DNA of 58,989 nucleotides, filler included, from Dugesia japonica (GCA_001938525.1; 5 parts of 5 records of this genome joined end to end with filler, not necessarily neighbours in it), one strand, 5' to 3'; counted from the first letter of the whole stretch, positions 10,401 through 54,400 are shown. Notes: generated by a model not told the origin, from the sequence alone. Numbers and translations: made by a program.

Positions 10401-10738
10401 ATATAAAAATACAATCATTTACAACTTGCTCAGTACTTTTCTTAAAAAAATTAATATAAGTAGAGGGATAGTGGCGGTCTGGCGCACACATATTCAGTAC
10501 CCCCCCCNNNNNNNNNNNNNNNAAACGAAACATAATCCTAATGTATTTAGTCGACGATTTGAAATTGCACACCTATTAAGTAATTTTATGTAACTGCGCC
10601 AGTATTTTTTATGTGTATTAAGTTGGGAAAATTATTTGCAAACAAATTATGTCATAAGATAAATTTACGTAATAGGATTAAGTGGCTACATATTNNNNNN
10701 NNNNNNNNNNNNNNNNNNNNNNNNNNNNNNNNNNNNNN

Positions 10739-10750
10739 TTAATTAATTAA
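10739..10750. other. Artificial contig linker TTAATTAATTAA within N run
   Basis: Six-frame stop linker flanked by N runs. Confidence 0.97.
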
Positions 10751-12069
10751 NNNNNNNNNNNNNNNNNNNNNNNNNNNNNNNNNNNNNNNNNNNNAAGAAA
10801 GGAAAAGAATAAAAAAAGAAAATGGTGAAAAAAATAAAGTAAAATAAAGAAAAATTAAAAAATGAAGAGGGTTAAAGAAGGAAGAGGGTTAAAGAAAGAT
10901 TACGATAAAAAGGGTAAATGGTCATTATAAATAAACAAATTGGAATAAGTTTTATTTTATCTATGAAAATGGTAAATGTTGTTGAAGTTCGAGATAGAGA
11001 TTTACTAGAAGACGTTGGATCAAGAATGATTTGGAATGCAGATACTTGCATCTTGTATAGAAACCATTGCGCTAGTGAGTCACAATGGTGACTTNNNNNN
11101 NNNNNNNNNNNNNNNNNNNNNNNNNNNNNNNNNNNNNNNNNNNNNNNNNNNNNNNNNNNNNNNNNNNNNNNNNNNNNNNNNNNNNNNNNNNNNNNNNNNN
11201 NNNNNNNNNNNNNNNNNNNNNNNNNNNNNNNNNNNNNNNNNNNNNNNNNNNNNNNNNNNNNNNNNNNNNNNNNNNNNNNNNNNNNNNNNNNNNNNNNNNN
11301 NNNNNNNNNNNNNNNNNNNNNNNNNNNNNNNNNNNNNNNNNNNNNNNNNNNNNNNNNNNNNNNNNNNNNNNNNNNNNNNNTATTTCAAAATTTCTAACTC
11401 TTAAATAATTGGCTTTGTTAAATTTGAAATTTTAAAAATAAAAATTATGATTTTGTATCAAATAATTATAATAACAATTTTTGATTTTTAGTTAATAATT
11501 TTTTAGTTTCCTATGAATAATATATCTGCATATAAGCGTAATTCAGAAACTAAGCAACACAATAACACTCAATTTTAAATAGGCTATTTTTTTGCTGGGT
11601 TATCGTTATTATTATCCTTATGATCTGATTTTATAATTATCGTTTTTATTATTGTGGTACTATTACTAGTCCTATCATTATTTATTGTCCTTAGTATTAT
11701 CACAATTATTAAGCACAATCTTATTATTATTGAATCAATATCGATGTTACCACTGGTACATTCGTGGCTGTTAGCACTATAAGTTAATGTCATTACTATT
11801 AATATTACCGGTATTCCGCTCTTGGTGTATACGGTTAGTGCTCTTACTGCAGAGTAGTGTTACTCTTATAATTATATTCAGTATTATGGTCATGGTTATT
11901 ATGTGGCGTAACGGGTATTAACCGTAAGGTTCTCATTATTATTAGGAACGGTAAATTTATTATCATGTTATTAAATTCATTATTAGGATTGGCATCAGTA
12001 TTATTGAGATTATTATTCTTACCATCTTTAATAATGCTATTAATTTCTACTACCAATATCATTATTAAT

Positions 12070-22058: not shown

Positions 22059-22109
22059 ATGTCGTNNNNNNNNNNNNNNNNNNNNNNNNNNNNNNNNNNN
22101 NNNNNNNNN

Positions 22110-22121
22110 TTAATTAATTAA
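22110..22121. other. Artificial contig linker
   Basis: TTAATTAATTAA in N run. Confidence 0.97.
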
Positions 22122-22165
22122 NNNNNNNNNNNNNNNNNNNNNNNNNNNNNNNNNNNNNNNNNNNN

Positions 22166-22655
22166 GAATTCTACCTTGTGGTATATTGCATTAATTTTTC
22201 TCACTTCTATCTCAGATTTGAGATCGGTTTTAGGTGTAAAGAATTCTTGACATACTTGTTTGATCAGATAATCTAAGCGATAGGCATTGCGACCTTTGGT
22301 TAGGCCCAATTTCTCAAAACATCTACCGTGTGATAGGTCTCTAATTCCCAATAAACGCTGCGTCGGGATACCAATAACTTTAATGATTTCTATAGCATTG
22401 CAACCAACGATTATTTTTCCATCAAAAAGTCGGTGCAATTTGGCTCTACAGGCATATTCATCTCAACGTCCAACTATTTCTGTTTCGGTTAATCTATGGG
22501 AATGAGTTTGATAGTGCTTTATGAGTTCTCTGGGAGTAATAATAGAGTTAATTATTAATTTCCCTTTGAAATTTTCTATTGATATTGATACTAATGCTGA
22601 AGTGTTTTCACCTTTGGTTGTTGCGTATTGTGCTGGGACGAAAAGTAACTTTTCT
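22166..22655 (-). pseudogene. DEDDh exonuclease-like domain (ISG20/REX4 family), catalytic residues replaced
   Basis: SALVSISIENFKGKLIINSIITP..IKHYQT..LFDGKIIVGC..IRDLS..RLDYL..SEIEVRKINAIY matches the REX4/ISG20 pattern; two ORFs in frame across one stop. Confidence 0.72.
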
Positions 22656-23355
22656 CGCTCGTCTTCTATTCGAGGTATCCGTTGGGCGCGCAATGAAAAG
22701 TGTTCCTTTAAATCATTCTGGTTAATATTGTAGATCCAATCCTCTACAGCTTTAGTTTCGAATAATGAGTTCTCTATCTGGGTGATAAATCTCGATGACT
22801 ACTAATACATTTGTTTTATTAGTGTGAATTTGCATATTCTTTTCTCGACTGCTCCCATTGTGAATTCTGTCATGAGAGTTCAACAGGCTCTACTGTTCCT
22901 GCAATTAGTAGCATTAACTTGTCTGATGGTACATGTACTACTAAGCAATCGGTGTTGATTTTCTTCAAATTAACTGGTATTAAGTCTAATAATTTGTTCT
23001 GAGTTTTTGCTTTAAGCCATATGGCTACCAATTCACGTTCGGGAGATTCTGGGACTTTGATCATGTTTGGGATCAATGTGCACTTTTGGTAATACCAAAA
23101 ACATTTATTTGAAGTATTATATTCTTTTGAGAAATACATAAGGAAACTTGTATAGATATATTTTGGTTTAATAGACTGCGTGATTTTTGTCTTGGACTCT
23201 TCTGTTGAGTAGTAGTACTGGAATCATCTAAAATTACTATTATTAACAAATTATCCTTATAACATTATAGGTGATAGTACAAGCTCTACTGCTTGATAAA
23301 TTTTAGTGCATTCAAGCTATTCTAGCTTATTTTTTGAATGCAATTTATGATGATT

Positions 23356-24330
23356 TTATATATCAGTGGTTTCGTATATCTGGTCATTATAATATACGTG
23401 AAACCTCTTAAAATGAATTTTAGCACAGATTGAAATAAATGCTACTAATGTCATCAACAGTACTAGGCCCATAAGTATTAATTGTAATTGCTCTATTGTT
23501 ATTATTCCCAACTTGTTTGGCGAACAAATACACGTATTATTTCGAATTTCCTGTAGGCGCAATGTGGTTTTTTCCATTTTGTTAATTTCGTTTATTCTCG
23601 TGGTGGGTGTAGTTGTATTTATTTGATTTATTTTTAGTCTAGATTTCAATCCTTTCCAAAAATTGGGTTTCATTTTATAAATATCATTTCCAAGCTTTTC
23701 TGTGTTACAGTTAGCTATTTGTAAATTTTGCTTTTCTTTTTTGAAAGTACGCATTTCTTGTCGTAATAAGATCCACTTTTGACCTTCCTGTCTGAAATAT
23801 TGAAATTTCAATATTAGTTTACTTTCACATTCATAAGAAATGAGTAAGTAAGTTGATTCTTTGGTGATGTTTTTATATCGAGATGTCGTATTCTTGATTA
23901 AAATACATCTGATCGCTTCATACCTTGGTACATGTGCAACTAACATAAGATGGGTATAGTTACTGACAGCTTTGACGTATGCTGGTTTAAATGTAATAGT
24001 TTCTTGTATTTCTACCGTATATACTCTGAATTGAGTAATACTCTTAGCTGTTCAGTTTGCTTCCATCTCTGTAATCATCAACTTAATTACAAAATGTTTA
24101 TTTCTGTGTATCTCGACTTTGGGTGAGTTAGTATTTAACTGAATATTGAGATTCAACCTAGAATCCATACTTTCGATCGTCACTGTGTGATTTCTATCTC
24201 CAACATGTTCTATCACTATAGTCCGATCTTGTGCATAAAACCGAACAAATTCTGTTTCTAATAACTTTGGAGTAAAGTATTCGGCTGGAGTTGTTTGTAC
24301 AATCTGTATTAAACTCATTATGACCAAAAA
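23356..24330 (-). pseudogene. Post-integrase type I membrane protein-like region
   Basis: Signal-like IVNFLVIMSLIQIVQT, beta-rich ectodomain, TM LQLILMGLVLLMTLVAFISICA. Confidence 0.5.
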
Positions 24331-24459
24331 ATTAACTATTTTTGGTGGTTGTTTAGATCTCAGAGTATATTTATGATCCTCTGTCGTACTTTGTTGCTTT
24401 GACCTTTTCTGAATCTTTTTATCTTTTATCTGTTTTACTTCAACCGCTTCTGTACTGGT

Positions 24460-25560
24460 TGGTATAAATTTCTTGCAACGATTAGCATGAACGAATATTG
24501 GTTCATGGTCTGGTTTATTATGTAGTTGTAATAACACGTTTGTATCGGTAGTTTTAATAACTTCTTAAGGTCCTTTAAATGGCCTCATTAACTTTGGTGA
24601 AAATCCCTTTTTATTGGAGTGTCCTTCTAACATCATTAAATCTCCTGTTATGAATGGATTTTCTTTCGTTGTTTTATCATATCTTTCTTTCATTGATTCT
24701 TGATTGAATTTGATATTCAACCCAGCTNNNNNNNNNNNNNNNNNNNNNNNNNNNCTCAATTCTACTGCATAATCTTTTTCATCCATATATTGTGAAATTT
24801 GTGGATAGAAAATTAAATCAACTGGCATATTTGTATGCCGTCCGTACATCATATAAAATGGTGATTGATTTATGCTTGGTTGTATTGCATTTCTGTACGC
24901 AAATAAGCACGATGGAATGTGTACATCCCAATCGGTTTGGTTAGTGTTAACATATGACGCGAGCATATTAACAAGCGTGTCATTAAATCGTTCTACTAGA
25001 CCATTGGTTTGTGGATGGTAGGGTGATGTATTTAACTTCAAAATTCCCAAAATACTCGTTTATTGCTTTAATGAGATTGCTCATAAAATTAGTTCCTCTA
25101 TCAGATAACAATTTTTTAAGAACTCCAAACTTAAATATTATTTGTTCGACAAAAACCTTTGCTATTGTAGGGGCTTCATGATTTGGTAAAGGAAAAGCTT
25201 CAGACCATTTAGTGAGATAATCGCAAAATACTAAGATGACTCTATTTCCGCTGCTTGTTAGTGGAAATCTTCCGAAACCTCGACGGCTAGTACATCCCAA
25301 GGATGTAATGATACTGGCATTGGTTTAATGGTTCTTTAGCTTTCTTTCCTGTGTTTCTTCTGGTAGCGCAAATTTGACATGATTGACACCATGCTTTAAC
25401 ATCTAGTTCCATAGATGGCCAAAAATATTTGAATTTTAATCTAGATAGTGTTTTTCTGGTGTACAAATGTCCTCCTAATGCTCCATCGTGATATTAGAGT
25501 AACAATGGATCTCTTAAATTGTTAGGAACAACAACAGTTGATTGTTGAGCATCCATAAAT
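24460..25560 (-). pseudogene. Gypsy integrase
   Basis: HH-CC zinc region, DYLTKWSEAFP, LLSDRGTNF, TSPYHPQTNGLVERFN, FKGP, VHANRCK. Confidence 0.95.
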
Positions 25561-25686
25561 TTAATAATACCTTCATCGATTATGAAACAATTTTGATCTT
25601 TGTGCCATCCTTTAGGCAATTCTGTTATTTCTCCTTTGATTAACTTGTTAACTAATTTTAATTCATCATCGTCTTGTTGTGCTTGT

Positions 25687-27000
25687 TTAATATCGATTTT
25701 GCTTCAGAATAGTAAATATAGTATCTGTCGTTTGATATTGCTCACTTGGCAAACGAGATATAGCGTCTGCGTTAGCATTGGCTTGTCCCTTTCTGTATCG
25801 TACTTCGATATCGTACTTTTGTAACTCTAATGCATATCTGATAAATTTAGATAGATTATTTTTATGTTTCATCAGCCATTGTAATGGGCAGTGATTGATT
25901 AGTACAATCACTTTTCAACCTCATATGTATTGTCTAAACTTTTGAACTGCGAAAATTATTGCATATGTTTCTAATTCAATGACTGCATAGTTTTTCTGAT
26001 GTTTTTTTAATAGCTGGCTCGCATATGCAACAGCACACTCTTTTCCATCATCATCTATTTGTCCTAGGACCGCTCCGACTGCTAAATTACTAGCGTCAGT
26101 CATTACATAAAATTGTCTTGACATATCTGGATGTCGCAAAATTGGTTAAGTAATCAATTTTTTTTAACGTTTCAAATGCTTGCTGTTGTTCAGCTCTCCA
26201 ACTGAATTTTACATTTTTTCTATCCAATTTAGTCATTGGATGCGCGATTTTTGCAAAAGTTTCAATGAATTTTCGATAATAATTAGCTAAAGCCACAAAT
26301 TATTTGGTTTCCATTTGATTTTTAGGAATTGGATAATCTTTTACTTTTTTAATGTTATTTGGGTCTGGTTTAACCCCATCTCTAGATATAACATATCCCA
26401 AGTATTCAATTTTGTCTTGACACCATGTGCATTTTGTTGGTTTCAATTTGATTCCTGCCTGTCTCATACGTTGGAAAACTACTTCAATGTCTTTCAAATG
26501 TGATTTCAAGTCTTCAGAAAAGATTATAACATCATCGATATACACGATGGCATGATCTACATCCATTAAAGCGAAATTCATAGCTCTTTGAAAAGTAGCT
26601 GGTGCTCTGGTTAAACCAAAGTGCATTAAATTGTACTCAAATAATCCTTTATCAGTGGCAAATGCTGTTATTGCTTTGGCTTTTTCATCCATGATGAAAT
26701 CCTATATTCGCATCTAGTGCTGAAAACATTTTAGCATTTCGTAGTCGTCGTATTATTTCCTCTATTAATGGTAGAGGGAAAGCATCCTTTATAGATACTT
26801 AATTTACTGCTCTGTAATCAATACACAATCGTATTCCTCCTCCCTTTTTCTTCACCACGATTAATGGCGAACACCAAGGTGATTTGCTTGGTCTGATTAG
26901 TTTGTGTTTACGCAGTAGTTCTACTCTTTCATGAACTAGCTTCTGTAATGGTTACGGTATTGGATACAGTCGTTTTTTGATTGGAGCAGGATTTATTAAT
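25687..27000 (-). pseudogene. Gypsy reverse transcriptase and RNase H
   Basis: [63 protein letters not shown]. Confidence 0.97.
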
Positions 27001-27444
27001 GTAATTTCGTGCTTTAGTATCTTACATACTCCTAAATCGAATTCGTGTTTTGAGAAAATATCTCCGTATTTTCTGAGTAAACTCATAAAATCGACTTTTT
27101 CTTCCATAGACAGTTCTAAATTCATTACTGATGGTGGATCATATATTTCTATTTCATCCACTTTAGGTTGTTTTGTTGATATTTCATCTCTTTGCATTAC
27201 TGTAATTTTTCCAATTTTTGTATTTGGAAACAACAATTTATTTTTGTTATCTAAATTACATATTCTGATTGGTATTTCCCCATTCTTCGGTTTAACTAAT
27301 GCAATTGCTGATCGGGATATTATATTTCCGTATGAATTCTGGATTTGGTTCAAACAATACGTCTTCCGTAATTTCTTTATTCACATTAACATAACAGATC
27401 ACTTCTGTTCTTCTAGGGATTTCAATTCTATTTGAGATAAATGC

Positions 27445-27840
27445 CTAATCTCTGTCGTAGACTATCTTTTTATCTGGTGTAATCTTTACTAGACTACCGC
27501 TAGTGCAATCAAAACTTACGTCTTGTAATTGCCTTAATACATCCATTCCCAATATGGCTTCACTAGGACAATTTATCATTACTCTCGCTGCTACTTCAAA
27601 TGTTTGATCACATACTTTGAATTTAAATTTTAAGTGTCCTTTCAACTTTACTTCTACTCCGTTTATTCCAGTAGGTATTATTGCTGCTTTTGTAATTTCA
27701 TCAATTTCTGTATAGTTTAATATTTTGTAGTCGATCAGTGTGACATCTGATCCGGTATCGATTATTGAGTATACCCAATGTCTGTTAACTTTTATTTTTA
27801 TAGTTGGTTTTTGATATTTAGGAGATTCGTTGGATATCAT
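27445..27840 (-). CDS. Retropepsin aspartic protease
   Basis: IIDTGSDVTLI and AILGMDVL. Confidence 0.93.
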   Translation of the reverse strand: MISNESPKYQKPTIKIKVNRHWVYSIIDTGSDVTLIDYKILNYTEIDEITKAAIIPTGINGVEVKLKGHLKFKFKVCDQTFEVAARVMINCPSEAILGMDVLRQLQDVSFDCTSGSLVKITPDKKIVYDRD

Positions 27841-27852
27841 AAATACTGACTC

Positions 27853-30213
27853 TTAGATTATCAATCCCTTTCTTTTCATTTCATCTTGTAGTTGTTGCTG
27901 TTGTTTCAACTGATCTAACGGTTTTATAGGATATTGAGATTGGATTGGTGCAGTAGATGCTGTATACTGCCATGATTTATTTCTATCATTGATCTGTACT
28001 TCGTCATCTGAATATGACGTAACCAAATTTTGATGATGCCTTTTTACTGTTAGAGAAAATATTTTAGTTCTTTTTTCATCCTCTAAATCTGAATAATCTG
28101 AAAAAAATTTTTAATGATGATTTATTTTGATTGGATTTCATTCTGTATTGTCAAGAGGCAACATGATATATGTTTTGTCTCACCCCTCCATCCTTTGGAT
28201 AGTTATCGTCCTGATGATCATCATCTTCAAAATAAATTTCTCTGTGTCTAGGCATTGATTGCTTTTGATTTAATTCGTTGATCAATTTATGATGCCTTCT
28301 GAATATAAGATGTGTTGCTATAAATGGACAACATCCAAATATTAATTTCCAAGTGCATCCAATTGTTTTGTAGATGTCTGCAAAAGATAATACCTGTTCT
28401 GCTGCGACTTTTATTAATACTAATATTATTAATATGCCTGAGATTCCTGCCATAGTTGTTCCAAAGGCAGTGAAACATCCCCATACGCTTCCCCATATTT
28501 GACGTGCAACACTTTTTGCCGCATGTTTGTAGTGTTCTATTCCAAATAATTAGTTATAATCTAGCATTTGCATTCCATTTTGGTAGATGGTTCTTATAAT
28601 TTCCGAAATTCTTCTTTCTCTTACTTTAGGAAAGAATATCGTTTTTAATGCTTCATCTATATCTTGTCGTGTATAGACTCTGTTTGTATTTATGACGTTG
28701 ATTGGTTCGGCTTCAAAGTTTTGATCTAACTTTATAGCCTATATTGTATGCACCTCAGCTGGTGGTGGCTTTCTATCTGGTAATGATATCCAGATGTTAT
28801 TGATTTTATATAATGGTAATAATACACCATTATACATAGATATTTGTGGTTTAGCTTGTTCATCTATCAATAAATGAGTGATAGGAGTCATAAATCGTCA
28901 TTTTTTTGATAAATTACTAGAAATTCGATCGTACACGGAGCATAGTTTGTTACTGCAACTACTACCGCTTCACAACGATACACATATAACGCTTCTGCCA
29001 TAATTCTACCGAACATTCCATCTTCGGCTATTATTTGAGTTATTAAATCTGGGTTAATTATTGATAGTGCTAATCTATTTCTCATAATTTCTCGATTTAA
29101 TCGACAGTCGTTTAGTATCACTTCTTGATAAATTTCTTTTAATTCTGCTTGAAGATCATGATACAAGTAATCAACTTTGTTATTAATATAATTTGTTAGT
29201 TTTATATCCATTGAATGTATCTTGTTAGCAGTTGATATTTACTTTTTGCTTAGATATATATCTTTATAATTGGTTTCGTAGACAATTTCTGCACATTTAG
29301 TGGTTTGAGCTTTTCGCACCAGTCTAATGGCATCTTTTGAATCTGCTGAAATTAACATTATCAGTGTTCTCTTTTCATCCAATCCTTCTTCTCTGCTTTC
29401 ATTTTTGGCTGTTTTTGCATTTATTTTATGGTTAACAACCTTTTCTGCTTTAAATTTTGTGCCATTTATTTTTTCAAAAGTCACTTGCTTAAGCAGTGCT
29501 AGTTCGCAAAAGTTTAATTGTGGTTTGTAAATCATTCTTGCTGCTTCCGTGGAGCATGGTGCATATTTCGAGTTGGATTCGGGATAATTAACCATTTTTC
29601 CCGTAATAGCTTCGAATACTCCTTCATATTCTAATAGTTCGACGACATATTCCTCAATATCTACAACCCCCGTTTTTACTCAAGTTTGTCCTCTCCATTT
29701 ACCGGGTCCATCGTAGGTTTTGTCGTCTTTAATGTAACCTCGTATCAATGTGTCTACTAGTTTTTTATTTGGCAATGCTTTAATTGATCTTTCTTTGTCA
29801 ATACGTAACTTTTGTGTTCCTAACGCATTTTCACAGTCTTCCGACAACACACGTATCGGTCTGGGTGTTATTTTCATTGATAGAAACACTGTGTATGAAT
29901 GTCTACCGCACCAATATTCGAAAGTAGATTGTTGTAATCTGCATTCTCTGACTTCCGTGCGATAGTACGTAGTTTCTTGGTACACGTAGTATGCTTCCGG
30001 ATTACTTCGCTGTAATCTTGTTGGATATGCAACTTTACATTCGATAGTATCAACTAAAGAATATATTTTGACTAATTCTGGCTTCTTGCAATCATACGCT
30101 ATCAATCCTGATGTTTGCGTGATCATTTGCGTTAAAAGAATTGTTAATAACATCAAAATAGTATTTTGTAAATTTAGTGGTCTCTTTACTGGTATTTGAT
30201 TGTTACCTCTCAC
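27853..30213 (-). pseudogene. Chuvirus-like (class III) envelope glycoprotein
   Basis: Signal peptide then GLIAYDC..YSLVDTIEC; C..S..YWCG.HS; YETNY; MDIKLTNYINNKVDYLY; LYVYRCEAV; C-terminal FGTTMAGISGILIILVLIK TM region. Confidence 0.82.
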
Positions 30214-30992
30214 TGTTCGTAATTATAGGAATTCGGACCATTGCCCATGTGTGACAATCCATGGTTCTACAAATTGTACGATTATGCCACTCAGCATTTC
30301 TATCTCTTGATCTAGGTCAAAATTTTTCTCGTTAGCATGTTCTATTCGTTTGATTAAATAAGCAAAAATATTACATATCTTTGCTTCATCTAGGCCAGTT
30401 TCATACACTTACCGTATGACCGCACTTATATTTTCACCGTCATATTGTACTGTCGGCAGTTGATCGATGCAACTCTTAATCAATTTTTAAATTGATATTC
30501 ACAATCCACTTTATCTAGTGGTAACTCTGGCATGATTTTTTTTTACTAAATTATTAGTTAACTTTTCAGTACTCGACATTCGATGTATAGGTACCTCTGG
30601 TGGTTGATTCCACGTTGGAACTGCTGCTGTAATTTGTCTTGCTCTAAGTGCACTTCGTGTTTCATCTGATAACAGATTTCTAAGTGGCGGTATTTACCCT
30701 GAATTAGGTGGTCTACCTCTTCGTCTTGTATTTACGTGAGAGTTAGCATGTCTAATTTGTGTTAGTACCTCTTGTACTGTACTTGTTTGATTAATAATTG
30801 GTGGTCTTATTTCTTCATCTGTAGGCACATTTTCTACATCAGAAATGATTACATCGTCTACATCTAAATCTACTTGATGCAATTGATTAATCGGCTCTAT
30901 CATAACCGGTATTACTGCTTCGGGAGGTGGGGGTGTATTGAGCTTATCCATCTCCATTCGATTATGTTCAGTTTCCTCTTCAGACTCTTCTG

Positions 30993-31230
30993 TTACCTCA
31001 ATTCAGGTACTACTTGTAGTACAACATTTATTTTTCTGTCTGCAAGATATCCAACATCGACCAGATATTCATCATCGTCAACTAAACTTCCATATATAAT
31101 TATCAGGTAAATATTTTGCTCATTAATTTCATGTCGAATTTCTCTCCTTAACCTTTTAACTTTAGTGAAACAATGATAATATTTTGTTATATTTGGATAG
31201 CCTTGTATAGCAATATCCAGTGTCAACATT
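30993..31230 (-). pseudogene. Ubiquitin-like domain 2
   Basis: TKVKRLRREI..IYLIIIYGSLVDDDEYLVDVGYLADRKINVVL resembles the ubiquitin C-terminal half. Confidence 0.5.
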
Positions 31231-31570
31231 CCTTGTCTGGATGGATTATGTCTGATAGCTTCGCCGTTTTTCCGCACGAGCATTTTTATTTCCGTTTGAT
31301 AAGGAGTGTTTAGACTCATTATTGGTAATATATTATCAATCAATTGTGCTAATGTATTGACAGGTATAGCTAGTATGATACAACAGCTTTTTAACTGTTG
31401 TATTATCTATAGTTAACTTTTGTAATTCATCTTTTATTTGATGTGGTAATGCTTCCATTTTTTCCATTTCTCTTGGTTCATATTCTATTACCAAACAACA
31501 TTGTTTTGATCAATACACATTGTAGAATTTAATGAATACCTAAGTCTTATCTCATTCGGCCAATCTGGGA

Positions 31571-31750
31571 TTAGTCCGTTTCCAGTAATGTTTTATTTGG
31601 ATCCATTAATTGTCCAAAATATCTGAGTTGAATTGGCTGTACTTTACGACACTGAAGTTTACAAATCAAGTTTTGTACTGTATCTAATGGTTTCATTTCT
31701 ATCTCAAAGCGATTACCGTGTGGTGGTTTAATCGCAATTAAGATTCTCTC
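31571..31750 (-). pseudogene. Ubiquitin-like domain 1
   Basis: ILIAIKPPHGNRFEIEMKPLDTVQNLICKLQ..QLRYFGQLMDPNKTL vs ubiquitin [46 protein letters not shown]. Confidence 0.72.
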
Positions 31751-32294
31751 AGCTCTAACTCTTGGTTTGAGCTGGCATCCGATTTTCTGTAAAATCGCTA
31801 ATGCTGGATCATCAAACATGTTATCTTCATTTACTCGAGTTGTAACAAGCTCTAATGCTTCCGGTATATCGCTATCCGGTATNNNNNNNNNNNNNNNNNN
31901 NNNNNNNNNNNNNNNNNGCATTTCATTTACTTTTTGTCTGTATTTGTCAATTTTTAAACATTTCCCCATGTCTGTTTTTTCTTCAAATGACGTATCTGAT
32001 AGTAAGAAATATACACTGTTTTCATCATCACTAGTCGTTGTATACGACTCATTGTCTGTATCGCTTTCAATTGCCTCATTTTTCTTTGCATAGAAAATGG
32101 TTTCATTGTTATCTGTATTTGTCGGTATGCTTCCTTGAGCATAGTAAATATCGTCATTGTCAGATTGTTCCTGCAATTTGCTCAGTCGCGTTCTCTCCTT
32201 CTGGAGTTCATATTCTAATTGTTCTAACAGGCTTTTGCAGTTGTCTTCATCTACTAAATGAGTAGTAGGTATTCCTTGTGTAATTTCCCTTGAA

Positions 32295-32361
32295 GCACTA
32301 CAGGATCTAGCCATGTGTCCGTACTTCTTGCAATTGTGACATTTTATTTGTCCCTCTGTAT
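32295..32361 (-). CDS. Gag nucleocapsid zinc knuckle
   Basis: CHNCKKYGHMARSC, in frame with ORF 31571-32314. Confidence 0.9.
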
Positions 32362-32405
32362 NNNNNNNNNNNNNNNNNNNNNNNNNNNNNNNNNNNNNNN
32401 NNNNN

Positions 32406-32417
32406 TTAATTAATTAA
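32406..32417. other. Artificial contig linker
   Basis: TTAATTAATTAA in N run. Confidence 0.97.
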
Positions 32418-33119
32418 NNNNNNNNNNNNNNNNNNNNNNNNNNNNNNNNNNNNNNNNNNNNACTTTATATTTTATTTACTTGTAAAATTGTTATAATTTT
32501 AATAAAGTTTACTATAAAATAAACGTGTTATTTTTTGATTTATCTTTATTTATTATTTATAATAAATAAAAGAATAGTTCACCTACACGCCTAGTAATTT
32601 TAAATTGGAGTCAGTTTATTTATTGTTAAGTACCTGAGCCCACTAGGATCTAACAAGAATATAAAAATGAAAATATCCAAACAAATTAATTTTATAAAAT
32701 TATATTAATTAATATAAAAACCGAAATTCAAAAGATGTTTTCTTTTTTAAATTTTTTGCAATACATCCAATGATAATAATGATAATAATATTTGAAACGG
32801 TTATTATTCTTCTAATAGGAGATTGATAATGATTTTTAGCTTTAATAATAATGTTTAATTTGGAGGTTTATAAGCTTCTTTATTCGATTTTATTTTCCGT
32901 TTGGTGATTGCCAAGAATTTTGTTTTTTTTCTTTATTTGAAAAGTAATTTTTTAATTTTAATTTTTTTATTTCAAATTCTCTGTCGATAATTTAATCAAA
33001 ATTTTTATTCTCAAATATTTCTATTATAATTATAGTAATACACGTGTGTATGCATTTATACAAACATATATAAACATTTTTAAAAAACATAAAAATAAAA
33101 ACAATAACATTACACAATG

Positions 33120-34288: not shown

Positions 34289-34608
34289 TTTTGGGTTGCT
34301 AGGCTTTTGATGTTGTTTTAATTTAATTTATATTGATCTTTCTTTTTAATCTCTCGATCATCATTATCTCTTTTCTTTAATATCATTTCTGTCTCGGGGA
34401 TGATACCTAGCAACCACAGAAATTTGCGTTGCTCTCTCTAGCAACACGATCCTCCTTTTCCCGGAACCAGCGGGACTATCCTGTATCTCGTCTTGTGTGT
34501 TTAATTTCTCTTTTATCCGGCTCTCAACTTTGCAGTGTTGTTTGTTGTTATTAATAAAAAACTTCTCAGTTAAAACATTTGTAGAAAAGTTTTTTTAGAT
34601 ACTAGTAT

Positions 34609-34965
34609 TCACTCATCTATGTTGATGGTTTCTTTTTCTTTTTGAATCTCCTTGACGGGTTTCGTCACCTGTGTGAGTGTGCAAACGGTTGCGATCATCA
34701 CGCTCTCTCGGTCGGCATATGATTTGATGATGTCGGCCATCGCTCGATATGATTGCGATAGAGCAAGATCCATTTCCTGCAACTTAATACTCTTCGCTCG
34801 TAGGGTAGAGTTCTTTCTTTGTAACTCCGTGACTTCACCTTGTAACTTCCTTTGTAATGACGCCCATTTCTTACGAAGGTCCACTATAGAAATGTCTGTT
34901 AGTGTCCTGGTTTCTGACACTGAAATTATGGAAANATAAAATTCTATAACTTTAATTATCTTCAC
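34609..34965 (-). CDS. Family X coiled-coil gene, copy C
   Basis: LRKKWASLQ...MADIIKSYADRESVM...INIDE*. Confidence 0.75.
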   Translation of the reverse strand: MKIIKVIEFYXSIISVSETRTLTDISIVDLRKKWASLQRKLQGEVTELQRKNSTLRAKSIKLQEMDLALSQSYRAMADIIKSYADRESVMIATVCTLTQVTKPVKEIQKEKETINIDE

Positions 34966-35049
34966 ATAATCATTTTATTAAATGTAAAATTGTTCATCAC
35001 GTTATTTATCATCAATCATTTATAAATCGAAATCAATATAATTATAATA

Positions 35050-38000
35050 TGATTTCATCTTTAATTCTTTGTTATCAGGAGAGTGTTTTATATCATTATC
35101 ATTAAATAACCATAAGACAGAAAAAATTGTTAGATCTAAAAACTATATAGATNNNNNNNNNNNNNNNNNNNNNNNNNNNNNNNNNNNNNNNNNNNNNNNN
35201 NNNNNNACCATCATTTTGTAACATTAGTGCCAATATTTTAGTTTTTAATTTTCCAGATTTCGGTTCTTTATGTATAGTCTTGCATTGGACACAGGTTTTA
35301 CAATCAGTTCTTGAGAGAGCATCTGCATTCAGATGTTCTTCACCTTTTATGTATTCCATTTTAATATCCGAATTGCTAAGATGGTTGATTAATATCTGAA
35401 ATTGTGGTGTTTTTGGTCCTTTAGTCTTCCGCATAAATGTTATTGCTTTAAAATCAGTTCTTAATCGAAATCTCTGTCCATACAAATAATGTTTAAAATG
35501 TTCTGTGAAATAAACAATCGACAAAAGTTCTATTCTGGAAATGCAATAGCCCAGCTCGTGTTTACTCATGGCTTTAGATTCGTAAGCAATAACTTTTTCT
35601 TCACCATAGTTATCAATTTGACTTAAAACTCACCTATTCTATCAAAGCTGACATCAGTGTCCAATATAAATTCTATAGAAAAATTCAGAAACGCTAAAAC
35701 TGGAGCTTTTATTAGCTCACCTTTCAAATTTTTAAAAGAAATTTCGCACTCATCTGTCCAGTATATTTTTTCTGGTTACTACCACATAGATTTTCTAAAC
35801 ATTTTGAATACTTTGTGTAATCCTTTATAAATTTTTTATAAAAATTTGCGAGGTCTATAAAAGTTCTAAACTTTTTAACACATTTTGGGGTTTCAAAATT
35901 AAAAATGGCTTCAATTTTTCACTATCAGTATGGATCTCTCTTGAATTAATAATGTGACCCAGAAATTTTATCTCGTTTTTCATGAAATGACATTTAGATG
36001 GACTTATTTTTAAATCAGCTTCTTTTATACTATTAATAATATCCACCTTTTAATAATTGTGCACCTTTTGTCGAAAATGCAGTTTTACATTTTGAGTCAT
36101 CTGTTAATTCTACTTGATAGTAAGCATTACCCAAATCTATACTAGTAAAATATTTGGCTCCATATAAAATGGAATAAGAAAAATTGGTCTTTCTGTAACT
36201 TCGTTTAACAATCTATAATCTAAGCAAAGTCGTATGTCATCATGGTCTCGTTTTTTTACGCAAACCAAAGGAGCATTCCAAGGGGAGTCACATTTACATA
36301 TAATTCTATTTATATCCATTTCTTTAATATTTTGCTCAATTTAATCTATTAAATGATAAGGTTGACGCCTAAGAATATTTGCAATTGGTTTACTATTTGT
36401 TATTATTTCATGTTTTACAATAATACTTTTTCCAATATCCCATTTATGTTTAATTATAATGCTTTCATATTTTTCTAAAATCGTGAAAATCATTTTATCT
36501 TTAATATTTTCAATTACTAATGTTTTCGGTTTAAATTTATTTACATTAACAGATTCTTCATTAATGGTGAGTTTTATATTAAATTTATTCAATAGATTTA
36601 TTCCACAAATAACANNNNNNNNNNNNNNNNNNNNNNNNNNNNNNNNNNNNNNNNNNNNNNNNNNNNNNNNNNNNNNNTTAAATATACTTTTCCTACAATT
36701 TTTAAAGAACTATTATTCGCACATTTAACATTTATATCAGAATCAATTACTAAAACATTTGCAATTCTTTTTAATAATTCATATTTAATAAGACTAATTT
36801 TAGCTCAAGTATCAAGTAAACATGATGTAACAATATTATTAATTTTTAAATTTATCATAGGTCGACTATCTGCGGTATTATAGTTTTCATAAATTTCTTT
36901 ATCAAAATTATTAATAATTGATAAATTATTATTATCGTTATAATTTTCATTACTACTATAATTATTTTTATTATCCACAATTATATCAAGCATAATATCA
37001 TCACACAAATTTTTTTCAAGCAATCAATATCAATCATACCATTATTGCTCAAATCAAATCTTAAATTTTTTAATGAATCGCCCCGACAACTTCCTCTCTT
37101 GGAAGGGCTTTGGCTTTTGGCAATTGATCTGTCATCATCTGTCATCAAATCATCTGAATGTTCATCGTATGCTGCAACATTGTTTTGACGATAATCTCTT
37201 TTCATATCCCGAATCTCATAGCATTAATGTTTAAAATATCCAGGTCTGTTACACTGGAAACCTTTTACATTTGGACAATTAACTCTGACATGTCCTTCTT
37301 TTTTGCATGACCAACATCTTTTAGATCTTTGTGGAAAATTATTTTCCNTTCTCTTAAATCCTCTTCCGTNAAAACGATTAATGGGTGTACTTGAATTAAC
37401 ATATCTTCTGGAATTCGAATATCGGTTTCTGTTGTTTTCCACTAAGTTATTCCTTTTAAATGTGACTGGGTAATTTGACTGAAAATCATTAAATTTTGCA
37501 GTTGTTGCATAATTCTTCTTTCTGATTTTAATTGCTGCAACATTGACTTCTAGATTAAGCTCCTTCTTGATGTTGTCCATTTTTGAAAAAATGTCTTTCA
37601 TTTCTTCATTTGTACTGGATACTCGAATTTTTATTTCTTTTTTACATCCATATCTTCAACAGCGTTTTGTAAAAGAAAACTGATGAGATTTTCCTTTGTT
37701 AAGTTATGTCTAATTATATTCTCTGCAAGACTATCAATTTTGTTGAAAAACNNNNNNNNNNNNNNNNNNNCTTTTCGATAATTTAATGCAGATAATAAAT
37801 CTTTACCTGAGGAAAAAAATGCTTTCATAAATGTTCTTTGAACAGGACCTTGAGGCATTGTAAGCTCATAAAATCTTGCTATCTCGATAAAAAATACTTC
37901 CACATCGTCTCCAATATTGAAGGTTTTGGAGTAAGAACAAAGGAATTGAGCATATGTTCTTGGGTGGTCACCATGTTAGAAGTCTGTTTCATAACCATAA

Positions 38001-46590: not shown

Positions 46591-47732
46591 ACTATAGGCC
46601 TTGTGGTTGGTGTCCCTTTGACATGGAGCTGATTGATATTAATTAAAAGATGATGGAAGAGATTTCGATAGATTGGGATCTCGTGGCATCCAAAATCAAT
46701 AATGATCATTATAAAGATTCAGTTTTAACATTTGATACGTTAGCTTCAGTTTTCCACTAAGCAAAAAACGATGTCAACGCAAGAAACGATAATTAAAAAC
46801 TGAANTCAGTTACCAAGGGTTGAAGACATNCTCTAAAAANAGTAGTCTTCAATGAGAATATTCCAAAAGAATCACTTGCAACTATGATGATGAATAAAAA
46901 AGAAAGAGCCATTCTTGAGGATGTTCTCTTAGGAAAATTCGTGGAGACGAAAAATCTCACATTTATCAAAGATTATAAATCCATTGTTTCCATCTAAGTA
47001 ACGCGAGTAAAATCACCGTAAGTCATCTCAGATCAATGAATGAATTTTTGAAGGTTTATACGTTGAAAAAGCTAAATGTTGAATCTATTAAAGAAATCAG
47101 AGAATTCTCCAGATCAAAAAACTTTTCTTCAACTAATGAATAAGTTTACAAATTTCTCTTTCCACCATTCAGATAAAACAATTCCATTGGATCTGGCGAC
47201 ATCTTCAAATTATGTTATTTCATCAGAACCAAATGAAAATGGTTTGACTCCTATAGTAGATAAGGTAGCTTTTGCTTATTGGATGCAGGCTATTCTAGGT
47301 AAGTCTAAATCACTTGCAATGTGTCAAGTTTAATGGAGCGCAATACAATGGTTGTGGTTTTGTTATTTTCTTTCTATCAATTTTCTGTTTATTTTATATT
47401 TAATTATTTATATGAATTTTTATCTCTGTGGAGAATTAGTAGGCCCCAAGAGAGTCACCGGAAAAAAATGTGTTGGGACACTTGGGTGTATGCTGTGCTT
47501 AACAATTTGATTATTAAACGATCAATTTATAATAGTTTTAAAGAGAATGTGATGACTGGGGACAATTTCTGTTTATTATAATAATATAAATAGTTATTAA
47601 AATTATTTAAATTAAAGAAAAAAAAATAATAATTATTTAAATAGCTATAAAATTATTTAAATTTAAATAATAAATTATAAACTCCAAANNNNNNNNNNNN
47701 NNNNNNNNNNNNNNNNNNNNNNNNNNNNNNNN

Positions 47733-47744
47733 TTAATTAATTAA
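47733..47744. other. Artificial contig linker
   Basis: TTAATTAATTAA in N run. Confidence 0.97.
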
Positions 47745-48349
47745 NNNNNNNNNNNNNNNNNNNNNNNNNNNNNNNNNNNNNNNNNNNNTTCGCCACCACA
47801 CTTCTCAGAAAAACCATCCATCCAATCTCATAAGTCCTTTGACAATGTATAAACTAAATTCTTGTCCAACAACAACCAAATCTTAAAAACCCCTGAAAAA
47901 TTATTTCCAAGATTTCCAGCTCTCCCTCGAGTTCAAATTCACTCTTTCACACACTCACATACACACAAACTCAACTTGACCTACTTTATAAAAATCCCCT
48001 TAGCAACCAAAGCACACACACGGGCACGAAAAAGAAAGAAAAGCGAAAAGAAAAATAGCACAAAGTGATGAAGAAATTGTGAGGTTGTTGCTACGAAGTG
48101 AAAGGAAGCTAATGTGACAAATAAAGTGCAAGTGAGAATAAAATGAGAACGATAAACTGTGAGTGGAAGTGTAATACAAAACAATCGTAGAAACTAAAAG
48201 GAGAAAGTATTAAAATGCCACAGGATCAAAAAAACTGATCCGATCAAAAAAATTTTGATCCCAAAAATCTTAGAGAAAAAACTACCCAAAAAATCACAGC
48301 ACAATCGTAATGTGTTTCTGAGCCTCCCCCCCTGGGGTGTCCACTCCAA

Positions 48350-49165
48350 ATTGATTCAGTGCTTATGCGCTACTATCCCCCTACTACCATAAATGATAAC
48401 CCTAACCCATTTAGTGATGCTCAGCATACTAGCTGTGATACAGGGGAATCGACTATCAATTATTTAGTTGATCTTCGTCAATGCGGTCTAACGAAACTCA
48501 AAAAAATAAAAATCAATGTAATTGAAGGAAAGCAATTTTCTGAGACCGTATTAGAGATGTTGAAAGACCAGTACTTGTAATACAAGAGAGAACAACCTAA
48601 CCCCGACGTGTATATAACCAATTCTACTGACGAAACTATGAGATTTGTTGGTAAAGGCAACTATAAAGGTTTGTATCTTAGTTCAGAGGATAGAAAGGCA
48701 GCAAAGTCGCAAGTGGTGTTATATGAATACTGTCGAATGCCGTTTGGGTGGAAGAATTGCTCAGCTGCTTTTCAAAGATTCATGGATACAATTCTGAGAG
48801 AGCATCAATGATATTATTAAATGTTCAAAAAATGAAGCAGGCCATGAAGATCATGTACAAAAAGTAACCAACACCATTTATTCTATTGGAGTAGAGATCA
48901 ATGCGGATAAGTGTATTTTTCGATCGCTGCAAGTAGAATTTTTTTGATTCAAGATATCAGAGAGTGGAATCCTTCCTAAAACTGAAACAATCAAAAGCTT
49001 GAGAGAAATGAGCCTTCCAGCCAACTTAAAGAGCTTGCAAAGATTTATCCAGCAATTGAATTATCCAGACAAGTCAAAACAATTTGTGTTAAGAACTGAT
49101 GCATCATTAGAACAATTGGAGCAAGTGGAATCAGAAGGCAAACATACTCCAATAGCATTTTTTTC
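48350..49165 (+). pseudogene. Heavily deleted Gypsy pol fragment (RT, RNase H start)
   Basis: YEYCRMPFGWKNCSAAFQRFMD; INADKC; LQRFI; YPDKSKQFVLRTDAS. Confidence 0.88.
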
Positions 49166-49680
49166 TGTTTTCTCCATTCGCCTCAACTCTCCTTTTTTCT
49201 CTCTTTTTGCGTCCTCTCTCATCGGTTCCCACTGTATCACTCCGTCCTGCTCTGTTCGCCTCGAATCTCCTCAGTTCCCTATTTTTCCTCCACTCTCCTC
49301 TGTTCGCCTCTACTCTCCTCTGTTCACTCCATTTGCCTCCACTCTCCTCTGTTCGCCTCTACTCTCCTCTGTTCGCCTCTACTCTCCTCTGTTTGCCTCT
49401 ACTCTCCTCTGTTCCCTCTATTTGCCTCCACTCTCCTCTGTTCTCTATTTTCGCCTCCTGTTTTCTCTGTTCGCCTCTACTCTCCTCTGTTCAGTCTATT
49501 TGCCTCTACTCTCCTCTGTTCCCTATTTTTCCTCCACTCTCGTATGCTCGCCTCTACTCTCCTCTGTTCCCTATTTTTCCTCCACTCTCTTCTGATCTCT
49601 CTTTTCGCCTCCTGTTTTCTCTGTTCGCCTCTACTCTCCTCTGTTCCATCCATTTGCCTCTACTCTCCTCTGTTCCATCT
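49165..49680. repeat. Pyrimidine-rich minisatellite (about 21/31-bp units)
   Basis: Recurring gcctctactctcctctgttc. Confidence 0.92.
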
Positions 49681-51499: not shown

Positions 51500-54400
51500 G
51501 ACTGAATCTTTGTTGTCTTGGTTGATCACGTATGTTGTTTTTATTACTAATTCGTCTACCCAATGCCTGTAATTAGTTTGTAATACTACTTCCTATCTTA
51601 AACCTGTTCAATGTTATGTGGGTGTAATAAGCCTTAGTCGAAGCTTTTGTTATGTATGTTAGGAATTCAGCTCTAGTTATGAAACTTTCTTACTCGTTAA
51701 TCGATTTCTTGTTGTCATGTGGTATTTCTTAAACTTCTAGTTTTTGTGTAACCATTCGATTGGTGTTGATACGAGTAACTAAATTACTTTTCAATTCCAA
51801 ATTTTCCTAGTTTCTATGTCATCACTTGACTTTCAAACACTTTGCTTCTGTCAGACAGAATGGATTTTGGTTTACCAAAACGGTATATCCACTTGTTTAA
51901 AATTATCTTAAAAATCATCTCTTCATCCATTTTTGATACTTCAGATAAGATGACTAGTTTGCAACAACGATCAATAGTCACAGCCATATATTTTTTTCCC
52001 GATTTCCTCTGTTCCATATGAACTATGTCCACTACGATTTGTTCTAAAGAAATTTGGTTTCTTCACTGTAAAACGTTTTCTTTTGTACGACTTTGTACTG
52101 CTTTCCTTTTGGCACACATCTCGCATTTATCAATACATTTATTAATTGTCTCGCGAATCTCTGGACAGAAATAACCATCTTGTACGTATGAAAATAACTT
52201 TTTCCTGTCCTCATGACATAAATCTTCATGAATTTGTTTTATTACTTTATCAACTATGCTTGTCTGAACCGTTAACAAAAACTTATTTCCTCTCTCTTTA
52301 ACTTATAAATCATCCACTATTTTCAATTCGTGCTTAAGTTTATTTCAGTAGCTTCCTTGTTCACTAATTTTAGTTTCTAAACCTTCTTCTTGCAACATTG
52401 TTAAACAGGTTTGATTTTCTGAATCTTCTGTATGAACCTGTCGAATCATTGTAATTATGTTGAATTCTATTGATATGTTTTACTATGGTCTTTTCTAATT
52501 TTGCGTCTATGTGTTTCATGCTATATTGTGAACATAAACTCTCCTTTAGCCTCGACAACCCATCTGTATTGTTGTGCTCTTCGCATTTTATATACTTGAG
52601 TTCAAAATAATACTCTCCTAAACTTGCAATCTACATCTGAAATTGTGGACTGATTAGTTTCTTTGTGTTGTTCAGAAACACCAACGCTTTTTGGTCGGTT
52701 CTAACAAGAAATCTCTTTCTAAACCAATATTGTTTGAAGTGTTTTACAAATTCGTGTAAAGCTAATAATTCTTCCCTTGTCACTAAATATTCTTTGTCAT
52801 GAGCTGTCAAATGTCAGGATCCATACGCTATTACCACTTCCTTTTCTAAGGACTGTACCCATAGCCAAAAAACTAGCGTTAATGTCTAAAATAAACTTCT
52901 GATCTTCCCTGGGATATTCCAATACTGGAGCACTTCATAACTTTTCTTTTAACGCATTGAAACTGTTCTTGCATGCGCTGTCTAAACTAACTGTTTGTTG
53001 CAACCTAAAGTTGCTTCATATAAAGGACCTGCTATTTTTGCTTAATCTTTTATTAAACGCCTATAGTAGTTTGTTAATCCGAGAAACGAAACGGAGTCTT
53101 GAAGAACATTCTGAATTCTGGAACTTTAGCATTCTTAATCTCTTGAATCTTAACTTCATTAGTGCGTATACCAGTTGTGCTAACTGTACATCCCAAGAAC
53201 AACACTTCTTTCTGATAAAACTTACATTTTTCCGGGTTTATTTTTAACCTTGAGTCTCTGATTCTGTAAAAGACTATCTCTAACATTTTGTCGTAACTCT
53301 CTAAGGTTTTTCCGTACATCAGAGTATCGTCCCGATATACAATAATTCCTTTGAAAATTAATACCTCCAATAACTCGTGTATTATTTTTGAAAAGTGGCT
53401 GGTGCCGTAGCTAATCCAAAAAGCATNCGGTTAAATCTGAATTGACTTTCCTTTGTGTTAAAAGCAGTGACATCCATAGACTTTTCCGCTAACTTCACTT
53501 GGTAATAAACTTGGCCCAGATTAATCGATGAAAATAATTTTGAGCTAGATAAATAATCTAATAATAACGGAATGTCTGGCATTGGAAAAGAGACTTTTCT
53601 GTCTTCAAATTAACTTGTTTGTAATCCACGCATATTCTTATCGAACCGTTCTTTTTTTACCTACAATCACTAATGGAGAATTCCAAGGAATATTACACTT
53701 GCTGATCCCACCAATCTTTGCTAATTCTTTAATAATATCTTCAATTTTCTTTTCTTGGTGCATTGGCTGTCTTCTATGGTGTTGTACTATTTGATCTCCT
53801 TTATTTTTTATTTCATGTATTACTTTTCTTGTATGCCCAATATCGAACTTTGAAGCCATGATTATCTCACCAAAATTCTGGATCAACTGAATCATTATTA
53901 TTTTATCTATTCCTTTAAACAAATTTAGAGCGTTACTTTTTCCTATTTTCATCAGAATGTGCTATCTTCAAACTCTCATTTTTTATATTATTTGTTTCTG
54001 TCAATTTCACTCCAAAACTTTGCATTGTATCAATACCGCTTATTAATTTGGGATGGATCTGTCTAACTTGGATGACTTTAATTTTCCTGACTTTCTTGTT
54101 CCACCGCATACTTAATTCTGCTGTACCCTACGGTTTTTCTCCTCTCTTATTAAATGCTCCATTTNATCTAATTTTGCATATCGACAACAATGGTTTTCCA
54201 ATTTTAATCCAACAGTTTTAACTTATGACTGTCGCCGAAGCTTCTGAATCCCAGAACATCTTTAACTTTAATACATAAACATATAACCTAGTCTACTCTC
54301 GTCCATCTTCTTTTTCAAATAACTCTCCTCTTTTATCATCATTTCGATTTATTTTGTCTTTTTCTATCCTGATTCCATGGACGAAATGTAAGCAATTGAG

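Follow-up and report, generated by a model that had tools for sequence, protein, structure and literature searches.

The minus strand of the window (the whole 58,989-nucleotide stretch of Dugesia japonica DNA that was analyzed) carries what is very probably a decayed member of a Burro-like Ty3/gypsy family that is present in multiple copies and whose intact relatives likely encode Gag-side domains, a class III fusogen, and Pol as one polyprotein. If so, the TAA codon in front of the protease in this copy is likely a nonsense mutation rather than a read-through switch. The visible element is bounded by assembly gaps at 22165 and 32362. From 5' to 3', the following features were found in order, all on the minus strand: a CCHC zinc knuckle, a PF11976 domain, an unnamed domain, a Bcl-2-like domain, Env (also referred to as G, for glycoprotein), a linker, protease (PR), reverse transcriptase (RT), RNase H (RH), integrase (IN), and a second membrane-protein-like region. 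The window has four assembly gaps of 100 bases each (10695-10794, 22066-22165, 32362-32461, and 47689-47788), each centered on a TTAATTAATTAA linker, and two of these gaps are the ones that bound the visible element.

Decay and extent of the copy

Decay was evident along the entire copy. There were 19 in-frame stops in the 2,323 codons examined, or one per 122 codons, and these were distributed throughout (12 TAA, 5 TGA, and 2 TAG), with some falling within RT and RNase H. In addition, pol contained six frame changes. The last of the stops (23358) could be where the frame ends naturally. No long direct repeat was found in the window, and LTRs were not seen in the gap-bounded element. No capsid part of gag was visible either, the gap at 32362 beginning just past the CCHC knuckle, and there was no Pfam match to BIR, MATH, or ankyrin domains in 17 window ORFs, the 5' part of the element lying in or beyond the gap.

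Contigs related to the element were compared in four public runs, which represent two organisms (three runs and one run, respectively) and three studies; one of the runs is possibly the source of the window itself. Related contigs covered 30 of the 30 bins of positions 22200-32360 in all four runs, mostly at less than 95% identity. An intact copy of exactly this family was not encountered. The depths given below are summed contig depths and not copy numbers.

The envelope glycoprotein

A chuvirus-like, gB-type class III glycoprotein was encoded at 28151..30129. The original prediction of a chuvirus-like glycoprotein was borne out by both profile and structure. Three separate pieces of G matched PF24664 (Monjiviricetes_fusion) with E values of 1e-16, 2e-18, and 4e-11, and a profile of 80 aligned sequences matched herpesvirus gB (E 7e-6). 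A structure model of the first 425 residues of G, with X at two stops, had a pLDDT of 90.8 and the class III fold. The top eight Foldseek matches of this model had 14-20% identity and E values from 2e-26 to 7e-23; the first was unnamed, and the named ones were chuvirus-type glycoproteins (E 5e-25 to 7e-23). TM scores to the top five viral matches were 0.61-0.78, and solved herpesvirus gB structures (HSV gB) were matched at E 1e-11. The model matched chuvirus-type glycoproteins best, and herpesvirus gB as well.

The two ends of the glycoprotein were found on the minus strand as they had been described, with the LIAYDC start near 30105 and the FG..AG..GI..I..IK membrane anchor, identified by hydropathy and of the same pattern in homologs, at 28400..28456. 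LIAYDC lies downstream of a hydrophobic, signal-like stretch at 30130..30162 (Kyte-Doolittle mean 2.5 over 11 residues), which agrees with the earlier suggestion that the signal peptide would be an internal one. Similar hydrophobic stretches precede Env in the homologs P0004, P0005, P0009, P0010, P0011, P0014, P0016, and P0019. After the anchor there was a second hydrophobic stretch, bearing Cys-Cys, at about 28345-28300, and the hydropathy values of the anchor and stretch pair were 2.28 and 2.03. G itself was not one frame in this copy, as it was broken by stops at 29682, 29241, 28741, and 28552 and by a frame change near 28895-28905.

A separate remnant of a related G was present on the plus strand at 48404-49166 (tblastn E 5e-8 to 8e-4), beside RT remnants of another decayed element. 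It had no Pfam match of its own.

Gag-side domains and the junction upstream of Env

The end of Gag was marked by the CCHC zinc knuckle at 32300..32356 (PF00098, E 1e-4), which aligned with the knuckle of P0018. Downstream of it was a ubiquitin/SUMO-like domain at 31574..31741, the match of which to PF11976 (E 0.003, 17.8 bits) was below the curated cut-off of 23.8, and then, at 31011..31379, an unnamed domain that is common to related polyproteins (tblastn E 4e-11 with P0003 and 2e-4 with P0011) and that had no informative Pfam match. The Bcl-2-like domain at 30226..30486, which contains a stop at 30411, lies directly before Env and aligned with P0004, P0007, P0018, and P0011. The window's piece alone had no Pfam match; the part of P0004 that matches it had weak similarity to PF00452 (E 9.6e-4) and to Bcl-xL chains in the PDB (E of about 0.01). 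The original placement of G between gag and pol was thus correct in that G lies between gag-side sequence and pol, but the ORF directly upstream is Bcl-2-like and not gag, which is visible only as the CCHC knuckle.

Env was in one frame with the gag-side domains across a single TAA at 30223..30225, between the Bcl-2-like domain and Env, which confirmed the earlier statement that the upstream ORF and G are in frame across one TAA. Four homologs aligned across this position without a stop, and on the basis of these homologs the junction appears to be open in intact relatives. A gag marker, Env, and protease were found together in one record in P0003, P0016, and P0019, and a gag marker and Env also in P0018.

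These homologs bear on whether Env might instead form an ORF of its own, initiated at Met 30153 or 30126 and expressed from a spliced or sub-genomic RNA, so that its in-frame position would be incidental. The TAA does lie ahead of the signal-like stretch, and there are two Met codons within the stretch. Furthermore, the available text of PMC13524379 describes GAG-ENV-POL elements as three ORFs, and neither 'single ORF' nor 'polyprotein' was found in that text. However, the four homologs that cross 30223-30225 without a stop and the four records that join a gag marker to Env argue against a separate ORF, as does ORF1 of Burro, which is one frame (PMC6431247). We therefore consider a separate Env ORF improbable and favor the polyprotein, in addition to which a sub-genomic RNA may exist.

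The junction between Env and the protease

The linker between Env and the protease (27856..28110), which is a predicted cytoplasmic tail and contains the motifs STAP and YPIKPL, was in frame with the protease across a TAA at 27853..27855. It had been thought that the tail of G runs into the protease across this single TAA, and that much is true of the tail. However, in this copy a TGA (28151-28153) closes the anchor-bearing piece of G, and the frame of that piece differs from that of the tail, which means that more than a single TAA separates G from the protease here.

The TAA was not kept in all copies of the family. Its codon differed in 646.9 of 664.3, 777.9 of 803.2, and 18 of 18 depth units in three runs (97%, 97%, and 100%), and the TGA at 28151-28153 differed in 382 of 382, 509.3 of 509.3, and 19.1 of 21.6 depth units (100%, 100%, and 88%). 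Neither codon appears to be a stop in the contigs that differ. About 3% of the depth in two runs retained the window's letter at the TAA, representing its own locus or close copies. The deepest contig over 28032-28102 had a different length, which joins the anchor piece and the tail in one frame (X1, X4, and X8; there was no bridging contig in X2). Judging from this joint length, the anchor piece and the tail would be in one frame in the deepest contigs, although a stop within the letters of 28032-28102 is possible.

Homologs of the polyprotein were also stop-free at this junction. In 11 of the 14 top homologs scanned, a single record free of stops encompassed both Env and protease, and the other three had no protease match and ended within or near Env. 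P0153 (4,844 amino acids) resembled the 11 in this respect. An Env in frame with pol, with no stop between them, was thus seen in the contigs of the family and in homologs, but not in the decayed copy.

The TAA had been proposed to be a read-through stop that sets the ratio of Gag-Env to Pol. It is in frame and 32 codons before the protease active site, and gag-pol read-through stops of gammaretroviruses lie at such a position before the protease. Retention of the window's letter in about 3% of the depth would also be compatible with programmed read-through. On the other hand, the stop is missing from the bulk of the contigs (97-100% of depth) and from the homologs, which makes read-through very unlikely. 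Moreover, TAA accounts for 12 of the 19 stops in the copy, and the tail and the anchor piece of the copy are not in one frame. An RNA run had one partial read over 27790-28190, which gave no evidence either way. This negative result is useful because a junction stop that is likely the product of decay is not a read-through signal to annotate here.

Pol

A retropepsin-type protease was encoded at 27448..27852, with DTG at 27759 (PF00077, E 2e-7; PF13975, E 4e-7). It was followed by a broken reverse transcriptase and RNase H at 25750..26960 (PF00078, PF17917, and PF17919) and by a broken integrase at 24343..25694, in which an H2C2 zinc finger, a core, and a C-terminal part were recognized (PF17921, PF00665, PF13683, and tblastn). 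The order PR-RT-RH-IN is common to Ty3/gypsy and BEL/Pao elements. RT, RH, and IN were of the gypsy type by the best PDB match (Ty3 RT, E 9e-33) and by PF17917, PF17919, and PF17921. None of the BEL/Pao-type Pfam families (Peptidase_A17 and DUF1758/1759) were found when the pieces of the window and the records of the homologs were scanned. There was a conserved stretch between PR and RT that had no match to PF00692 (dUTPase) by Pfam; in Burro, a dUTPase-like domain between PR and RT was found by HHpred (PMC6431247).

At least two protease-like repeats were present between Env and RT in P0003, P0005, P0007, P0015, P0019, and P0153, the last of these having as many as six stretches. A further protease-like repeat lay downstream of integrase in P0005. 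Two other decayed gypsy-type elements, with CCHC, RT, RNase H, and integrase remnants and no G match, were found on the minus strand of the window at 34600-37975 and 51700-53900.

Relationships of the glycoprotein

An exhaustive HMMER search with G returned 571 proteins at E values up to 0.001. Longer relatives of G were not recovered by a word-seeded search, a blank that reflects a limit of sensitivity given the 571 proteins found by HMMER. The window G was 28-39% identical to relatives embedded in polyproteins versus 14-20% identical to chuvirus-type Gs. In a quick tree, which was used for grouping only, it grouped with all 14 of the polyprotein-embedded retroelement Gs (SH-aLRT 100). This tree included 69 of 151 rows, as those with fewer than 400 matched residues were dropped and stand-alone rows were cut to 35; it was midpoint-rooted and had no labelled viruses.

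Because G grouped with the 14 embedded relatives, it is not a private capture. The original prediction of an independent capture by a Gypsy element is therefore supported in its second part, the pol being of the gypsy type, but not in its first. A recent, independent capture of G into a Gypsy copy, whether from a chuvirus or from an EVE of chuvirus origin, has been largely refuted and is very unlikely, for although the best named structural matches were chuvirus-type glycoproteins and PMC7642597 reports a similar event for mosquito Pao elements, the identity values and the grouping with 14 of 14 embedded relatives both point away from it, related contigs extended over both G and pol, and the discussion in PMC13524379 favors an ancient association.

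Comparison with described elements

The position of G, which had been considered atypical, is not so: the env-before-pol layout has been published (PMC6431247, PMC13524379), so the layout of this element adds nothing new. A description of the group appeared in 2019 and a survey across animals in 2026; the element in the window is a further, broken member of it.

The closest similarity in layout is discussed here for the planarian Burro and GYPSM1 giant gypsy-like elements. As described in PMC6431247, the Env of Burro has homology to mononegavirus glycoproteins, is preceded by a BCL2-like domain and followed by PR, and shares the frame of both gag and pol, between which it lies. The same source gives Burro an Ubi2/SUMO-like PF11976 domain upstream of BCL2 (below the curated cut-off in the element here) and the order PR-RT-RH-IN. 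The BCL2-like domain directly before Env is also shared, weakly here and by way of the homolog P0004. The element differs from Burro in that the copy is decayed, the distance from knuckle to Env is about 2.2 kb, and there was no BIR, MATH, or ankyrin match in the scanned ORFs. Neither its LTRs nor its full size can be seen in the window. It also has a post-integrase membrane-protein-like region, which is unmentioned in the Burro section of PMC6431247. Burro proper (Burro1-4) has BIR, MATH, and ankyrin cargo and a size of more than 30 kb, and the element here is accordingly filed as Burro-like and not as Burro.

PMC13524379 describes GAG-ENV-POL gypsy elements whose Env is of the gB type; they occur in nematodes, bryozoans, and flatworms, including six in Schmidtea, and an ancient origin is argued for. 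One of these, Smed_errantivirus_4, has a gypsy pol and a gB-type Env before pol, as does the element here. In the best-looking block, compared by eye with the sequence in that source, 31 of 44 residues were identical to Smed_errantivirus_4 versus 18 of 44 for Smed_errantivirus_2. Other blocks, also compared by eye, were clearly less alike, so the Smed_errantivirus_4 family is likely a sister family rather than the same one. This resemblance, together with the domain order, points to a planarian host. The non-canonical nematode ERVs of Sacco et al. 2022, as cited in PMC13524379, are metaviruses with ENV before POL, which is the same order. Anakin, a mosquito BEL/Pao element with a chuvirus G, likewise combines an LTR retrotransposon with a glycoprotein of this family (PMC7642597), but the pol in the window is Ty3/gypsy-like and Env is ahead of pol within the polyprotein. 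The Troyka elements were also considered for comparison and were set aside as not relevant, having no env according to the accessible part of PMC12440569.

A conserved motif in the tail

The original prediction also held that the STAP and YPxxxL motifs of the tail could be late-domain-like. STAP was not kept: it is not the canonical P[T/S]AP, which was present in one of 11 homolog linkers, and two of its four codons differed non-silently in the deepest contigs. The YP(x)L-type motif, on the other hand, was enriched in both linkers and tails. In the counts that follow, the comparisons with shuffled sequences are not probabilities, because the motif was picked after the sequences had been viewed and the proteins are related. 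Of the 11 homologous linkers between Env and protease, 10 contained [L/I/V/M/P]-Y-P (shuffled mean 3.05), a number that was reached in 0 of 20,000 shuffles, and six contained the canonical YPxL/YPx3L (shuffled 0.52). Fifty-four of 117 stand-alone G tails were kept for analysis, 56 having been dropped for length, four for having no anchor, and three for having short tails. The YP motif was found in 31 of the 54 (shuffled mean 14.6, maximum 25 of 2,000 shuffles) and the canonical YPxL/YPx3L in 14 (shuffled mean 2.9, maximum 10 of 2,000).

In the family of the window, the Y, P, and L of YPIKPL were unchanged or silently changed in the deepest contigs. L was the most frequent residue immediately before Y. 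A hydrophobic residue stood three places on in 25 of the 33 YP sites of the tails. YxxPhi is a tyrosine-based sorting signal, and the hydrophobic residue at this position fits such a signal too. The YP motif could be a budding signal of the ALIX type or, alternatively, a tyrosine-based signal for sorting, and it is the one lead worth keeping.

A polyprotein of the kind predicted for intact relatives would be inserted into the membrane as follows. From hydropathy and general knowledge of polyprotein insertion, the polyprotein would begin in the cytosol with the Gag, ubiquitin-like, and Bcl-2-like domains. The internal signal would then thread the ectodomain into the ER, with a signal peptidase cut just before LIAYDC, and the anchor would bring the chain back to the cytosol, a topology predicted by hydropathy alone and one that would hold if the second hydrophobic Cys-Cys stretch stays out of the membrane. 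The tail would tether Pol until the protease of the element releases it, and Gag, Env, and Pol would be made in a ratio of 1:1:1 unless splicing or early termination shifts it. Env would serve in cell-to-cell spread.

It is possible, if doubtful, that chuvirus-like or gB-type Envs of invertebrate retroelements bear an ALIX-binding (L)YPxL late domain in the tail, in both the stand-alone and the linker forms. In that case the Env tail rather than Gag would drive budding, and it would also hold Pol at the membrane where budding takes place. An open-access literature search, and a word search of PMC13524379 as available, found nothing on a late domain or ESCRT for such Env tails, a result that applies to these sources and does not show absence from print. 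The mode of spread of gB-type enveloped retroelements is called unknown in PMC13524379, and if the YP motif binds ALIX it would provide a first testable release mechanism for them.

The region downstream of the integrase

The second membrane-protein-like region, at 23356..24342, follows the integrase and is in its frame. By hydropathy it has a signal-like stretch at 24339 and an anchor at 23481. The protein ends in ...QIYETTDI-stop, and the T-x-I with which it closes resembles a class I PDZ-binding terminus in form. No sequence homologs of this region of the window were found by homolog search or tblastn, but the same post-integrase layout was present in P0005, P0009, P0014, and P0153. For the post-integrase region of P0009, the protein atlas gave FN3 families with scores of 0.88 or less, which is a weak lead only.

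Behind the long frame of the element, at 22118-23223 on the minus strand, there were three more ORF pieces (117, 111, and 114 amino acids). Related contigs covered these at lower depth, and the two pieces that were scanned had weak Pfam matches only. In its NCBI entry, the Env-Pol polyprotein of P0009 is called a hypothetical protein and assigned to a Flavobacteriaceae MAG, which likely reflects animal DNA in a bacterial bin.
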